Assembly: GCA_020850695.1 (NCBI GenBank) | Contig: JADZEF010000164.1 | Span: 1 to 36,111 of the forward strand | DNA: 36,111 nucleotides | Reading direction: 5' to 3' | Source: Planctomycetaceae bacterium | Lineage (GTDB): Bacteria; Planctomycetota; Planctomycetia; Planctomycetales; Planctomycetaceae | Part shown: in pieces, positions 3,041 through 22,565 of the stretch | Layout: every line of letters starts with the position of its first letter | Position numbering within the stretch: the first letter of the stretch is position 1 | Program-made: the position numbers and the translations under genes | Notes under the pieces: generated by a model | What the model was told of the DNA's origin: nothing | The model's database searches: none | What the model saw: only the letters and a program-made list of their open reading frames with translations

Positions 3041-4627
3041 ATGACTTCCAGCGCGCATCCGATCGTCTCGGGCGCCGACCCGACGCGCCCCGCCGTCAAT
3101 CCCGAAGAGGCCGCCATCCTCATCTTCGGAGCGTCGGGAGACCTCACCGCCCGCAAGCTCCTGCCGGCCCTGTTCCAACTCTGGAAGGAAGGCTTCCTTT
3201 CGGACCGCGCCCCGATCGTCGGCGTCGCCCGCCGCGACAAGTCGGACGACGAGTTCCGCAACGAGATGCGCGACGGGGTCTCTCAATTCGCCCGCACGGG
3301 CGCATTGACCGACGAGGACTGGGCGAAGTTCTCCCAGCGGCTTTACTACCGCCGGCTCGACTTCACGCAGGAAGAGGCGTTCCGCGCCTTCCGCGGGCAG
3401 GTCGAAGAACTCGAAAAGTCGTCCGGCGTCTCGGGACGGCGAATCGTGTACCTGGCCACGTCGCCCGACCTCTTTCTTTCGTCGGTGGAGGGACTCGGCA
3501 AGGCGGGGATGATCCCGCACGGCAACGGCGACGGCTCGCTGCGGGTCGTCTTCGAGAAGCCGTTCGGGCACGACCTCGCGTCGGCTCAGAAGATCTCGCA
3601 CGACCTGGGCCGGTTGCTGACCGAAGACCAGATCTACCGCATCGACCATTACCTCGGCAAAGAGACCGTCCAGAACATCCTGTTGTTCCGCTTCGGCAAC
3701 TCGATCTTCGAACCTCTCTTCAACCGCACGCACATCGACCATGTGCAGATCACCGTGGCCGAGTCGCAGGGGATCGAGCGCGGCCGCGGCGGGTACTACG
3801 ACGAGTCGGGGGCGCTCCGCGACGTGCTGCAGAATCACGTCCTGCAGTTGCTCTGCCTCGTGGCGATGGAGCCGCCGGCCCTGTTCGACGCGAAGTACAT
3901 CCGCGACGAAAAGCTGAAAGTGCTGCAGTCGCTCGCTCCAGGACGCCCGGGGGACGTCTCGAACTGGGCCGTCGCCGGGCAGTACGCCGACGGCACAAGC
4001 GACGGCGAGCCGGCCCGCGCTTACCGCAAGGAAGACCGCGTCGATCCGAAGTCGAACCGCGAAACGTTCGTCGCCATGGAGTGCCGCATCGACAACTGGC
4101 GGTGGGCCGGAGTTCCGTTCTACCTGCGGACCGGCAAGCGGCTCCCCGAGCGCGTCAGCGAAATCGCGATCCAGTTCAAGCTGCCGCCGCTCAACCTCTT
4201 CACCACGGTCGAGTGCGAAGGAGACATCTGCGACCTCGTCGGAGCGCGGCCGAATACGCTCATCTTCCGCATCCAGCCGCGCGAGGCGATCTCGCTCAAG
4301 ATCATGACGAAGCGGGTTGGCATGCAGTACCAACTGCTGCCGGTGGCAATGGACTTCGAATACGAGTCGGCGTTCTCGAAAGGGCTGCCCGAAGCGTATG
4401 AGCGGCTGCTGCTCGATGTGCTGCGTGGCGACTCGACCCTCTTCACCCGTAGCGACGAACTCGAAGCGGCGTGGAAGTTCTGCACGCCGGTCCTTGAGGC
4501 CTGGGAGAAGCAGAACCGCGAGCCCGAATTCTATCCGGCGGGAACGTGGGGACCGGAAGGTTCGACGAAACTGCTGACGCGCACCGGACGGAACTGGCGG
4601 TCCCCGAGTTCGAAGAAGAATCACTGA
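3041..4627 (+). CDS. zwf: Glucose-6-phosphate 1-dehydrogenase
   Basis: NADP-binding motif IFGASGDLTARKLLP. Signature active-site peptide RIDHYLGKE. Also NHVLQLLCLVAMEPP. Length 528 aa from the ATG at 3041, with a GGAGA SD-like sequence about 16 nt upstream. Earlier in-frame codons in the track ORF are probably not used. Confidence 0.95.
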   Translation: MTSSAHPIVSGADPTRPAVNPEEAAILIFGASGDLTARKLLPALFQLWKEGFLSDRAPIVGVARRDKSDDEFRNEMRDGVSQFARTGALTDEDWAKFSQRLYYRRLDFTQEEAFRAFRGQVEELEKSSGVSGRRIVYLATSPDLFLSSVEGLGKAGMIPHGNGDGSLRVVFEKPFGHDLASAQKISHDLGRLLTEDQIYRIDHYLGKETVQNILLFRFGNSIFEPLFNRTHIDHVQITVAESQGIERGRGGYYDESGALRDVLQNHVLQLLCLVAMEPPALFDAKYIRDEKLKVLQSLAPGRPGDVSNWAVAGQYADGTSDGEPARAYRKEDRVDPKSNRETFVAMECRIDNWRWAGVPFYLRTGKRLPERVSEIAIQFKLPPLNLFTTVECEGDICDLVGARPNTLIFRIQPREAISLKIMTKRVGMQYQLLPVAMDFEYESAFSKGLPEAYERLLLDVLRGDSTLFTRSDELEAAWKFCTPVLEAWEKQNREPEFYPAGTWGPEGSTKLLTRTGRNWRSPSSKKNH

Positions 4628-5017
4628 ATGACCGGCCGCGATTGTGAGGCACTTCTGCAAAGCGAGCATTTGACGGTCTATCGTCCGTAGATCGGTCAGG
4701 CCGTCCCGGCAGGTTCTTCGTCTTTACGCCAACGGCGTTGTACGCAGTAGCCCAGGGTCGCGAATGAAGTGAGCGCACCCTGGGGCGAAGGTGGAATACG
4801 ATGCGAACCCCGACGGGGTTCTACATTGCGTGCGGGTCGGCTCGGAATGCTTCACTTCCTGGACGCTGATCGTCGTACCCCGTTGGGGTACCGGGCAACG
4901 TGTTCTTCAACCCAGGGTGCGCTCGCAAAGCCTCGCGACCCTGGGCTACTGCGTGCAACGCCTTCGGCGTAAACCGCAACCATTCATGGTCGTGCGCCTC
5001 ACAATCATGGCCGGTGA
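4627..5017. repeat. ~390-bp nested imperfect inverted-repeat element (MITE-like or structured RNA) between convergent zwf and the SPFH gene
   Basis: Outer arms at 4627-4651 (atgaccggccgcgattgtgaggcac) and 4991-5017 (gtgcgcctcacaatcatggccggtgat) match in 23 of 26 positions as reverse complements. Inner arms at 4723-4763 and 4934-4974 match over ~38 of 41 positions. Internal perfect hairpins: gaaccccgacggggttc (4807-4823) and ggtaccccgttggggtacc (4875-4893). Further complementarity between 4762-4776 and 4846-4860. Confidence 0.5.
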
Positions 5018-5083
5018 TTTAGGTTTCGCTCGAGCGACGGCGCGTCTGGGTTTGATCAAAACTGGTGAAAAATCGCGACCCGG

Positions 5084-5113
5084 GCCCCCGGCTGCGTGAA
5101 TTCGCAGCCGGGG
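5084..5113 (-). terminator. Strong hairpin (12-bp perfect stem cccccggctgcg/cgcagccggggg, 6-nt loop) downstream of the SPFH gene; putative intrinsic terminator
   Basis: Perfect 12-bp inverted repeat. On the minus strand a TTTTT run (plus A-run 5067-5071) follows about 12 nt after the stem. It sits 57 nt past the stop at 5170. A second small hairpin, gcctgtc-N7-gacaggc, lies at ~5131-5151. Confidence 0.5.
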
Positions 5114-5169
5114 GGCTGTCAGCTTGGAAGCCTGTCCCATGATGACAGGCTGGAAGGCTGTCCCACGGG

Positions 5170-6300
5170 TCACAGCAGGTTGATCACCTTGTCGACCAGG
5201 CCCCGCTCCTCGGAACCCTTGCCGCCAAGGACAATGTTGAGCTTGCCCGTCGCTGCGATCTTCTCGAGCGTTTCCAGCTCGCGCAGACGCATCAGCACCG
5301 GGCTCTCGGCCAGCAGCCGCGCCGTGTTCGACTGGCTGCGGATGGCCGCCGTCTCTTCCCGACGCACGATCAGGTTGGCTTCCGCCGCCTTCCGTGCCTC
5401 GGTCACCTTGTTCATCAGCTCCTTCATCTCGCCCGGCAGGATGATGTCGCGGATACCGACCGACGCGATGTCGAGCCCGAGCTCGCCCGCCCGGCGGCGG
5501 ACGTTCTCCTCGATCTCGCGACCCACCGCATCCTTCTCGGTCAGCAGCGGGTCGAGCTCGCGGGCCCCGATCACGCCCCGCAGCACGAGCTGCGTTTCGC
5601 GGTAGAGAGCCTGCCGCACGTCGTCCGTCCGGCACACCGCCCGCCGCGCGTCGGCGATGCGATACGTCACCACCGCGTTCAGCCGCAGCGTCACCTTGTC
5701 GGCCGTCATGATCTCCTGGCCGCCAACGTCGACCATCGTTTCGCGCAGGTCGACCTCGGCCACCTTCGCCTCGGCCGGTCCCTTCCAGAAGGCGTACTCG
5801 CCGGGCTCCAGCGTGTCGGTGTAGCGGCCATCGATGAACAGGACGCCCGCCCGGTCGCGCGGAATCGTGCAGACGTCGAGCACCCGAGCGGCCATCGTCG
5901 AGCGGACGATGACCTTGAACTGCTCGTGCTCGAACCGCACCTTGCGGGCGTCGATGATCTCGGCCCGGACCTCCTTCTGTCCGGTCCAGTAGACGTACCG
6001 CCCCGCCGGCAGGATGTGGCTGAAGCGGCCGTCGATCCACACGAGCGCCCGCTCGTGGTCCTTCAGGTCGAGGACGATCGCCCGCCCTTCGAGCGCGCCC
6101 GACTTCACGATGAGGTCGAGCTTCTCGTGGACCAGCCACGGATCGCGCTGCGACACGACATCGACCCGCACCTTGCCCAGCGGGTCGAAGAACCAGTGCG
6201 AGCCCGCCGGCACGAGGCCGAGGAACTCATCGTCGCGGAACAGCAGTCCGACTTCGTACGAACGAATCTTGAAACGCTTGAAGAACACGGCACACCTCAT
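5170..6300 (-). CDS. SPFH/band-7 (stomatin/prohibitin/flotillin/HflKC superfamily) protein with three N-terminal internal ~60-aa repeats and no predicted TM segment
   Basis: The C-terminal half carries SPFH hallmarks: ...VTLRLNAVVTYRIADARRAV...LRGVIGARELDPLLTEKDAVGREIEENV...GLDIASVGIRDIILPGEMKELMNKVTEARKAAEANLIVRREETAA. The N-terminal half has three repeats sharing the motif [D/G]G-x-[F/Y]-x3-L-x-[P/A]G-x-[H/Y]-x-[F/Y]-[F/W]. Clean ATG at 6300 and TGA at 5170. Confidence 0.85.
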   Translation of the reverse strand: MRCAVFFKRFKIRSYEVGLLFRDDEFLGLVPAGSHWFFDPLGKVRVDVVSQRDPWLVHEKLDLIVKSGALEGRAIVLDLKDHERALVWIDGRFSHILPAGRYVYWTGQKEVRAEIIDARKVRFEHEQFKVIVRSTMAARVLDVCTIPRDRAGVLFIDGRYTDTLEPGEYAFWKGPAEAKVAEVDLRETMVDVGGQEIMTADKVTLRLNAVVTYRIADARRAVCRTDDVRQALYRETQLVLRGVIGARELDPLLTEKDAVGREIEENVRRRAGELGLDIASVGIRDIILPGEMKELMNKVTEARKAAEANLIVRREETAAIRSQSNTARLLAESPVLMRLRELETLEKIAATGKLNIVLGGKGSEERGLVDKVINLL

Positions 6301-21698: not shown

Positions 21699-21908
21699 AA
21701 GACAGAAGTCGGCCAGAATGCAGGCAGCCCTCCCGCTTCGCGAGACAGTACGCCGAAGGCGTTCCATCGGATAGCCCGGCATCGCGAACGGAGTGAGCGC
21801 ACGCCGGACGCCGGGAATGGCTGTCGTTGACTTTGGCGCGGAAGGGGACGATCCGGTATCGTAGCGAGCTTCGCTCCGGTCCATTCCCTTTTGCCCCGCT
21901 TCCGTTCC

Positions 21909-22565
21909 ATGAGCAGCCGAACCGATCTGCAGCGCGTCCTCGACAGCGGCCTCGTGGCCATCATCCGGGCTTCGTCCAGCGAGCAGCTGGTCAACGTCGC
22001 CCGCGCCCTTCATGAAGGGGGCATCGACGTCCTCGAGGTCACGTTCACCGTGCCCAACGCGCTCGAGATTCTGGCGGCCGTGAAGAAGGACCTTGGGAAA
22101 AAGGTGCTGCTCGGCGCGGGGACCGTCCTCGATCCCGAGACGGCCCGCGCGGCGCTTCTGGCGGGGGCCGAGTTTCTCGTCTCGCCCAATGTCAATCTCG
22201 ACGTCATCCGCATGTGCCGGCGTTACGACAAGTGTGTGATGCCCGGAGCCTTCACGCCGACAGAAATCCTGTCAGCGTGGGACGCGGGGGCCGACATTGT
22301 GAAGGTCTTTCCGGCAGACGTTGGCGGACCCGGCTATCTCAAGGCCGTCCACGGACCACTCCCGCAAGTCCGCCTGATGCCGACCGGCGGCGTCGACCTG
22401 ACGACGCTTCGCGACTTCGTGAAAGCGGGTGCGGTGGCGGTCGGCCTCGGCAGCGCCCTTGTCGAAAAGAAGGCGGTCGAAACCGGCGACATGGCCCGCA
22501 TCCGCGACCTCGCCGGCCAGTACGTTCAGCTCATGAAGACGGTCCGGGCCGAACTGAAAGGCTGA
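21909..22565 (+). CDS. eda: KDPG/KHG aldolase (2-dehydro-3-deoxyphosphogluconate aldolase)
   Basis: TIM-barrel aldolase motifs: GLVAIIRASS...GIDVLEVTF, LLGAGTVL, FLVSPN, MPGAFTPTEI and the Schiff-base region GADIVKVFPA. ATG at 21909. Confidence 0.9.
   Translation: MSSRTDLQRVLDSGLVAIIRASSSEQLVNVARALHEGGIDVLEVTFTVPNALEILAAVKKDLGKKVLLGAGTVLDPETARAALLAGAEFLVSPNVNLDVIRMCRRYDKCVMPGAFTPTEILSAWDAGADIVKVFPADVGGPGYLKAVHGPLPQVRLMPTGGVDLTTLRDFVKAGAVAVGLGSALVEKKAVETGDMARIRDLAGQYVQLMKTVRAELKG

Follow-up and report, generated by a model that had tools for sequence, protein, structure and literature searches.

What kind of element is the large nested palindrome that starts at the stop codon of zwf in a planctomycete genome? 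The palindrome lies in contig JADZEF010000164.1, a complete 36-kb contig (36,111 nt, hereafter the window) of the metagenome-assembled genome (MAG) 'Planctomycetaceae bacterium'. A preliminary description, made from the sequence alone, proposed a miniature inverted-repeat transposable element (MITE), a long structured non-coding RNA or a DNA cruciform or recombination site. We found that the core of the palindrome belongs to a dispersed, covarying family of three-hairpin repeats, whose main form is a head-to-head doublet. In other genomes, this doublet brackets a gene for an IS200-like Y1 transposase of subclass-1.2 type wherever the gene was examined.

The palindrome spans positions 4624-5022, and repeat search of the window resolved it into four nested pairs of arms: an outer pair of 27 nt (4624-4650 and 4996-5022, complementarity 85%), an inner pair of 41 nt (4723-4763 and 4933-4973, 93%), a third pair of 20 nt (4771-4790 and 4905-4924, 90%) and a fourth, innermost pair (4807-4824 and 4872-4889). 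The multi-level architecture described earlier, with outer arms of about 26 bp and inner arms of about 41 bp, was therefore recovered nearly as stated. Folded as a single strand, the region 4620-5025 reaches -245 kcal/mol, compared with -157 +/- 5.6 kcal/mol in dinucleotide shuffles (z = -15.8); the opposite strand is also very stable (z = -12.7). Both convergent genes enclosing the palindrome were confirmed by their domains, zwf by matches to PF00479 and PF02781 and its neighbour as an SPFH/Band_7 gene (5170-6300, minus strand). The left outer arm had been said to begin with the TGA of zwf. It does overlap this stop codon (4625-4627), but it starts one base earlier, at 4624. No second repeat of the palindrome's size was detected elsewhere in the window.

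Closer inspection of the core (4722-4974) revealed two head-to-head copies of a unit of about 107 nt, the left one on the minus strand (4722-4828) and the right one on the plus strand (4868-4974). Aligned in the same orientation, the two halves share 83 identical positions over 112 columns. Each unit consists of a small hairpin H0 (ACCCC-NNN-GGGGT), a spacer of about 20-30 nt, a larger hairpin H1 (CCCAGGGT ... ACCCTGGG), the trinucleotide CTA, a linker of 8 nt and a 5-bp hairpin H2 (ACGCC-NNN-GGCGT). In the left unit, H0, H1 and H2 occupy 4805-4821, 4751-4784 and 4726-4738, respectively; in the right unit, they occupy 4875-4891, 4911-4945 and 4958-4970. Both H0 hairpins point toward the centre of the doublet, a stretch of 39 nt between the H0-side ends (4829-4867), and both H2 hairpins point outward. 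The 41-bp inner arms are made of H2, the linker and half of H1, and the two perfect internal hairpins reported previously are the two H0s. The first of these, GAACCCCGACGGGGTTC, is exact at 4805-4821. The second had been given off by one base; its real sequence, at 4875-4891, is GTACCCCGTTGGGGTAC, with C on either side in place of G and C.

A solitary, diverged third copy of the unit is located at 21746-21857 on the minus strand, in the gap before a KDPG aldolase gene (21891-22565, PF01081) lying just downstream of it. This copy has kept H1 and H2, its H0 has decayed, and its H1 carries compensatory changes in the stem (CCGGC...GCCGG). With R1, a covariance model of the full H0-H1-CTA-N8-H2 unit, the left, right and third units score 71.5, 73.2 and 46.1 bits (E 8e-21, 3e-21 and 9e-13). 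The left unit scores 54.8 with nhmmer. All three window units were part of the R1 seed, and their scores match those of independent members at loci L120-L129 (L numbers denote our individual loci).

The dispersal of the unit was examined with a strict pattern of 18 fixed bases, GGGCTA-N8-AACGCC-N3-GGCGTA, in a collection of one genome per species. The window contains three matches, at 4725-4753 (-), 4943-4971 (+) and 21749-21777 (-), where none is expected by chance. In the collection, the pattern matches at least 115 genome stretches, mostly from Planctomycetota, Verrucomicrobiota and Acidobacteriota. Complete chromosomes are among the carriers, as are the cultured Rubripirellula obstinata, Stieleria tagensis and Allorhodopirellula solitaria. 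Several genomes contain at least 6-10 strict matches, for instance at least 8 in chromosome OZ260084.1 and at least 10 in the Acidobacteriota record CBDCUP. Wherever gene calls exist, the units sit in intergenic gaps; viral contigs gave no match to the unit pattern. A one-off local inverted duplication or cruciform belonging to no family would account for the palindromic shape alone. It is already refuted by the third copy in the window and by hundreds of related units in other genomes, and we consider it practically excluded. The unit is multi-copy both in the window and elsewhere, but its conserved termini are not the outer arms.

Alignment of 113 units (A1) showed the H0/H1/H2 architecture throughout. 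Stem cells of the three hairpins are paired in 91% of cases, as against 25-47% once partners are shifted by 1-3 columns relative to each other, and 134 cells have changed on both sides of a stem, compared with 40 +/- 5 in shuffles. One pair of H1, for example, is AU in 69 units, GC in 23 and CG in 16. The invariance of H2 in A1 results from the search pattern, which fixed it; units that only the model detected show covariation in H2 as well (ACCCC/GGGGT, ACCGC/GCGGT, GCCCC/GGGGC). The same applies to the CTA following H1 (TAG on the complement), which is pattern-fixed in A1 and reads CTA, CTG or CCA in model-only units. The fourth base is C in 47 cases, T in 39, A in 21 and G in 6. Family-level conservation ends no more than about 5 nt beyond H2. 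Analysis of homologs thus revealed clear covariation of the stems, which fits DNA hairpins equally well as RNA.

An nhmmer profile of A1 retrieved 215 units in 122 sources. Among 78 pairs of neighbouring units closer than 700 nt to each other, 69 are arranged head-to-head (minus/plus), 7 plus/minus and only 2 in tandem. Measured between nhmmer unit ends, the head-to-head gap has a median of about 20 nt and amounts to 52 nt in the window; in five of the 69 pairs it reaches 497-641 nt, large enough for a gene, and the gene-carrying pairs described below fall into this wide class. The arrangement observed after zwf is evidently the prevailing one.

Open reading frames (ORFs) within 2.5 kb of pattern matches were clustered. 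No gene universally neighbouring the units emerged from the ORF clusters, the top clusters being spurious ORFs running through the repeat itself. One cluster comprised a protein of about 150 aa encoded at four loci, in records labelled as three phyla: L024 (Chloracidobacterium), L049 (Phycisphaerales), L059 (Margulisiibacteriota) and L099 (Pirellulales). The four proteins are Y1_Tnp/IS200-like (PF01797, E 1e-20 to 1e-24) and share 46-55% identity with one another. Scanning with R1 placed the gene between a minus-strand unit and a plus-strand unit at all four motif-anchored loci; at L059, the order is unit 3880-3989(-), gene 3998-4450, unit 4485-4589(+). Four contigs with homologues, picked by protein identity only, gave the same result, sometimes with extra units alongside. 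In total, all eight Y1 genes are flanked by an inverted pair of units. The doublet of the window has the same geometry as the gene-carrying pairs, minus the gene, whose place corresponds to the 39-nt centre. Since the core of the palindrome is a doublet of this Y1-linked family with no gene inside, the window copy is probably non-autonomous. Contigs bearing Y1 genes of this clade are mostly very short (0.5-2 kb), as would be the case should flanking repeats interrupt metagenome assembly.

All eight proteins are 151 aa long and contain the motifs DH[VIL]H, FQWQxGYGAFSVSQS and Y[IV]xxQxxHH together with a C-terminal DERYVWD. They score 55-65 bits with the NCBIfam IS200 model NF033573 (cutoff 55), and the closest solved structure is that of ISDra2 TnpA. 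All eight also match the signature of TnpAY1 subclass 1.2, an assignment based on comparison with the published signature, not on its authors' profile. This subclass was characterized by DH[IV]H, WQ, Y---Q--HH, a length of about 148 aa and a specific C-terminal domain, with a mean copy number of 1.7 (Quentin et al. 2018, PMC6006769). In the same work it is listed as 'REP: no', secondary structures at the termini are generally missing, and most members are assigned to Cyanobacteria and Bacteroidetes. The members described here, from Planctomycetes-Verrucomicrobia-Chlamydiae (PVC), Acidobacteriota and other records, agree with the subclass in the three motifs, in length (about 148-151 aa) and in the conserved C-terminal tail, but differ in being flanked by conserved inverted hairpin units in eight of eight cases. 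In the literature searched, we found no paper linking the subclass-1.2-type Y1 clade to three-hairpin repeats or to the Rfam motif Acido-Lenti-1 discussed below, and the links of the repeats to this enzyme clade and to Acido-Lenti-1 appear to be previously undescribed.

Taken together, these data make it likely that 4722-4974 is a gene-less head-to-head doublet, the non-autonomous form either of a system resembling REPtrons and REPINs (doublets of repetitive extragenic palindromic sequences, REPs) or of an IS200-type element, in the latter case as a MITE-like deletion derivative of the kind called palindrome-associated transposable elements (PATE). Two points are inferred, namely that the units are substrates of the Y1 enzyme and that the element functions at the DNA level. 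The hairpins would fold on single-stranded DNA, e.g. on the lagging-strand template, and the enzyme would be encoded at another site of the genome and act in trans. It would recognize the imperfect H1 and H2 hairpins, including a conserved purine-purine mismatch and the CTA tag, and would cut and rejoin single strands, so that the doublet is copied or moved and no target site is duplicated. Gene-less doublets might in this way be copied or moved in trans, as has been proposed for REPINs and RAYTs (REP-associated tyrosine transposases). Gene-carrying copies could be either mobile (an insertion sequence and its MITE) or a domesticated single-copy gene (a REPtron and its REPINs). Of the initial proposals, the MITE thus holds in substance, because the repeat belongs to a dispersed family, appears to be non-autonomous and mobile, and flanks a transposase gene elsewhere as the same pair. 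It is not a classical MITE: its partner is a Y1/HUH enzyme instead of a DDE one, and it has subterminal hairpins in place of terminal inverted repeats with target-site duplication. The cruciform or recombination site comes close to the DNA-hairpin mechanism suggested here.

Several points weigh against this reading. No Y1 gene is present in the 36-kb contig, in agreement with the earlier statement that the window lacks a transposase, and a cognate enzyme in the Planctomycetaceae host is assumed. The RAYT model of NCBIfam (NF047646, REP_Tyr_transpos) gives the Y1 proteins only 23-25 bits with a cutoff of 80, so the system is not a canonical RAYT one. The 8-nt linker, tested as an IS608-like guide that would pair with or repeat a nearby segment, showed no excess over permuted controls. 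The outer arms, a quarter of the palindrome as first described, are not explained by the family model. Genome-wide copy numbers are lower bounds only, and some phylum labels taken from MAG bins may be wrong. Finally, no pair of empty and filled sites was found, so that mobility and the absence of target-site duplication are presumed and the termini provisional.

A broader proposal goes one step further, and we put it forward tentatively, as plausible but slightly less than an even bet. The unit would be the single-stranded DNA recognition module of a low-copy, possibly domesticated Y1 nuclease of subclass 1.2, and the two would form an ancient partnership of the REPIN/RAYT type in PVC bacteria, Acidobacteriota and other non-proteobacterial phyla. 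Acido-Lenti-1 would then be a sister DNA repeat and not an RNA gene.

Insertions into the units bear on their nature. Some units are cut exactly at GGGCTA and are preceded by promoter-like sequence (L046, L082, L102, L129). We considered these stretches as transcription starts and rejected them, as they are right ends of IS110-family insertions. Elements of this family (DEDD_Tnp_IS110 and Transposase_20 domains) were identified at L129 (~287-1660) and L102 (~4367-6026). Their transposases are unrelated at the tblastn level, and the loci belong to different phyla, L129 being an unlabelled metagenome contig and L102 acidobacterial. In both cases, insertion took place at one and the same CT, that of ACC-CT-GGGCTA, and CT is present at either junction; an identical right junction occurs in L046 (~7888) and L082 (~4205). 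In E. coli, REPs are targets of IS110-family elements, IS621 being an example. By analogy, the parallel supports a REP-like nature of the units.

Do the hairpins act as DNA or as RNA? Each unit might be a small structured RNA gene related to Acido-Lenti-1, in which case the palindrome would represent two divergent RNA genes, or else one long structured transcript or 3' untranslated region. Such a reading would be in keeping with the strong covariation of the stems, with the very stable fold of either strand and with a sub-threshold match to Rfam RF01687 (Acido-Lenti-1) at 4911-4971, which has the same two-hairpin layout; Rfam treats this sister motif as a small RNA of unknown function (Weinberg et al. 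2010, PMC2864571). The match reaches 23.3 bits with a gathering threshold of 37, however, and no Rfam family matches at the gathering level anywhere in the window. Judged by score, the window units are below threshold and are not members of RF01687. E-value-level matches to P35, Ms_IGR-8 and Guanidine-II were discarded as chance matches. Covariation, as noted, is equally compatible with DNA hairpins, and mismatches in the covarying stems favour neither strand: G·T occurs 34 times and A·C 39 times in A1. Equal frequencies fit hairpins acting on both DNA strands, because an RNA read from one strand would tolerate G·U and avoid A·C. Furthermore, the units occur mostly as inverted pairs, also around a transposase gene, and are targeted by IS110 elements in the manner of REPs. 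A pattern scan of 4400-5300 revealed no sigma-70-like promoter, and the 39-nt centre hardly has room for two divergent promoters. A structured RNA, included in the preliminary description, is consequently not favoured, and we regard it as quite improbable.

Two further traits of the hairpins are worth describing. H1 contains a conserved purine-purine mismatch, A·A in 48 units and G·G in 27. Y1 transposases read imperfect hairpins, as known from IS608 and REPs. The three-base loops of H0 and H2 (in the window 4731-4733, 4812-4814, 4882-4884 and 4963-4965) read TNC in 65-70% of units; no GNA loop was seen on the unit strand. This bias is the sole clear strand asymmetry in the hairpins, and its complement is C-GNA-G, a notably stable DNA triloop. 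For the repeats studied here, this is a lead and not evidence.

Elsewhere, RF01687 does match at the gathering level, at L059 411-455 and L095 1622-1671 (39.1 and 38.5 bits), two loci that also contain R1 units at other positions. The RF01687 site of L059 gets a weak score of about 16 bits with R1. The three-hairpin repeat and Acido-Lenti-1 are sister subfamilies able to coexist in one genome. They share the succession of hairpin, CUA, about 8 nt and a 5-bp hairpin with UUC loop, as well as multi-copy occurrence, seed-alignment pairs about 200 nt apart and overlapping taxa. They differ in the mutually low scores, 23 bits for the window units with RF01687 and only ~16 bits for RF01687 sites elsewhere with R1.

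The outer arms (GCCTCACAATC..GGCCGGT) require a separate explanation. The left arm (CTGAATGACCGGCCGCGATTGTGAGGC, 4624-4650) and the right arm (GCCTCACAATCATGGCCGGTGATTTAG, 4996-5022) are separated from the units by 71 and 21 nt and do not belong to the family consensus. The left spacer (4651-4721, 71 nt) has no counterpart on the right side and no similarity to family units; in the minimum free energy structure it forms a local hairpin at ~4672-4697. The right spacer, between H2 and the arm, covers 4975-4995 (21 nt). An alternative to the Y1-linked doublet is a classical MITE derived from a DDE transposon, with the 27-bp arms as terminal inverted repeats and a target-site duplication around them. 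The inverted repeat of the arms is indeed significant (z = 9.3), and an arm recurs at the same distance from H2 in L129, the only contig retrieved by an arm-pattern scan of the metagenome collection. The doublet of L129 is homologous (71-82% identity), and the same arm follows 24 nt beyond its H2, a spacer equal in length to that of the window when counted from GGCGTA. The partner arm is absent on the other side. Past the arm, a flank of 32 nt looks like the 3' end of zwf in reverse complement. To judge from this flank, L129 probably represents the orthologous zwf locus in a relative. No direct repeat flanks 4624 and 5022, contrary to the duplication for which the preliminary description had suggested looking. 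Significant inverted repeats outside the units were detected in just three of 23 doublets or gene-carrying pairs, the window, L058 (z = 17) and L120 (z = 13), and those of L058 and L120 are partial units or other hairpin modules. The sole protein recurrently linked to the family is, moreover, the Y1 enzyme. A classical MITE is accordingly very improbable. As general family termini the outer arms were rejected, both for their rarity and because conservation stops within 5 nt after H2, and the original suggestion that they delimit the element was not borne out.

Instead, the outer arms form, together with their spacers (4624-4721 and 4975-5022), an extra layer specific to the locus or lineage. 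The arms could be termini of a longer local variant, remains of an earlier stem beside zwf, or an extension of the palindrome. In one acidobacterial genome, doublets carry conserved non-palindromic tail modules beyond H2, module A (GGAACGTGTCTnAAACACGCCCAAT) and module B (GTGATcTTCTgAAGTGGGAAGAAGTcTCTT), in either orientation (L053 ~370-425 and 651-700; L093 ~3370-3423 and 3649-3700; L069). This suggests that the mobile unit in that genome is longer than the family core. The existence of lineage-specific outer layers gives the system a mosaic character reminiscent of bacterial interspersed mosaic elements (BIMEs).

Could the palindrome simply serve the host as a 3' element, i.e. as a bidirectional transcription barrier or an mRNA-stabilizing stem between zwf and the SPFH gene, whatever its origin? 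Its position right at the zwf stop codon, between two convergent genes, and its extreme stability would fit such a role, and E. coli REPs are established to stabilize upstream mRNA and to terminate transcription, as is also stated in a passage of Di Nocera et al. (2013, PMC3733652). On the other hand, no intrinsic-terminator pattern with a T-run occurs in 4400-5300, in line with the initial view that ordinary terminators do not explain the architecture. The SPFH gene has a separate GC-rich hairpin, and the nearest zwf relative (78% aa identity) has another gene downstream, with a gap of 57 nt devoid of the palindromic element. Nor would a terminator need sequence-specific conservation across phyla or linkage to a Y1 gene. 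We therefore find it unlikely that this role explains the element; it is at best secondary and exapted, and as such compatible with a Y1-linked doublet. As regards the zwf locus, the palindrome is a repeat element and not a zwf-specific regulatory device, even if it may incidentally affect how zwf 3' ends form or how stable the mRNA is. An empty site was not obtained by synteny among the zwf relatives compared.

The hairpin of the SPFH gene is a perfect 12-bp one (CCCCCGGCTGCG / CGCAGCCGGGGG, 5085-5114), situated 56 nt downstream of the gene on the SPFH strand. Its similarity to the Pseudomonas small RNA P35 is at chance level, and it is probably the gene's own 3' stem-loop, distinct from the palindrome. 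No identical-protein record was found for the SPFH gene. In zwf relatives at 71% identity (L002 ~5655-5800; also L003 and L004), a 383-nt gap after zwf contains a different large nested palindrome (TTTGGGTGGCAC...GTGCCACCCAAATT). It gives no match to R1 and may represent another REP-like family at a similar kind of site.

REPs and REPINs with their RAYTs are the best-studied long-lived repeat population with a dedicated single-stranded DNA enzyme, and they are known almost only from Proteobacteria. The three-hairpin repeats resemble the proteobacterial REP/REPIN/BIME and REPtron systems (Nunvar 2010; Bertels & Rainey 2011, PMC3116915; Ton-Hoang 2012, PMC3333891) in many respects. The units are extragenic, palindromic and multi-copy, and they form mostly inverted doublets capable of adopting one long hairpin. 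As in REPtrons, inverted units enclose the cognate Y1/HUH gene, and further units are often present nearby; mosaic composition with lineage-specific extra hairpins is shared with BIMEs. At one foot of the main hairpin, where REPs carry a conserved GTAG or CGTC tetranucleotide, the units have CTA (TAG on the other strand), a putative counterpart that is pattern-fixed in A1. The units are also insertion targets of the IS110 family. Differences are equally clear. The unit has three hairpins and about 107 nt, and the doublet about 250 nt, whereas REPs measure 20-40 nt. The protein belongs to IS200-like class 1 (Y---Q--HH, 151 aa) and not to class 2 with its RAYTs (Y..NP). Whereas REPs as a rule differ from one species or genus to the next, the sequence of the unit is conserved in several phyla, and the hosts are PVC bacteria and Acidobacteriota instead of Proteobacteria.

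Two other systems deserve comparison. TIRtrons and TIRYTs (Di Nocera et al. 2013, PMC3733652) likewise have a Y1 gene within long inverted repeats, part of which also occur dispersed, in dimers or clusters, and Acidobacteria and R. baltica are mentioned among their carriers. However, the motif in the TIRYT proteins of Acidobacteria (aba 1552 and others) is the RAYT-type Y..NP instead of Y---Q--HH, for which reason we rejected these families as the same system, and their shared terminal motif GGGGWSAS has no match to the three-hairpin unit. IS200/IS605 elements and their PATE and MITE derivatives share with our repeats a Y1 HUH enzyme (closest to ISDra2 TnpA) and subterminal imperfect hairpins as recognition elements, and no target-site duplication is expected for them. 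In these elements, however, the left-end and right-end hairpins have the same orientation on one strand, whereas here the ends are inverted copies of one unit. In addition, tnpB is missing here, the window element is gene-less, and gene-less copies vastly outnumber gene-carrying ones.

The element after zwf is itself an ordinary member of its family. What appears to be new is the family's connection with an enzyme subclass that had been recorded as lacking repeats, and with an orphan Rfam motif. This connection is directly testable, and the three cultured carriers named above are available for experiments. If our interpretation is true, a second, differently built system, with three hairpins per unit and an IS200-type enzyme, is widespread in Planctomycetota, Verrucomicrobiota and Acidobacteriota. 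It would provide a function for TnpAY1 subclass 1.2 and a concrete reinterpretation of the orphan family Acido-Lenti-1. It would also account for a class of large palindromes between genes at which MAG assemblies break, and identify a conserved insertion target for IS110-family elements, which are of the bridge-RNA type.

Two minor observations concern hosts and neighbouring genes. A few carrier MAGs are labelled Binatia, Armatimonadota, Margulisiibacteriota, cyanobacterium and the like, labels that could not be verified. One MAG labelled 'Cyanophyceae cyanobacterium' (L042, L085, L098, L106, L119) contains seven units of verrucomicrobial sequence type. Mis-binning, and not true host range, may lie behind other unusual labels (Akkermansia muciniphila, Granulosicoccus and Deltaproteobacteria; L064, L075, L007, L044). 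In the window, both zwf and the KDPG aldolase gene, the neighbours of the doublet and of the solitary unit, are Entner-Doudoroff or pentose-phosphate genes; this shared pathway type is probably a coincidence.

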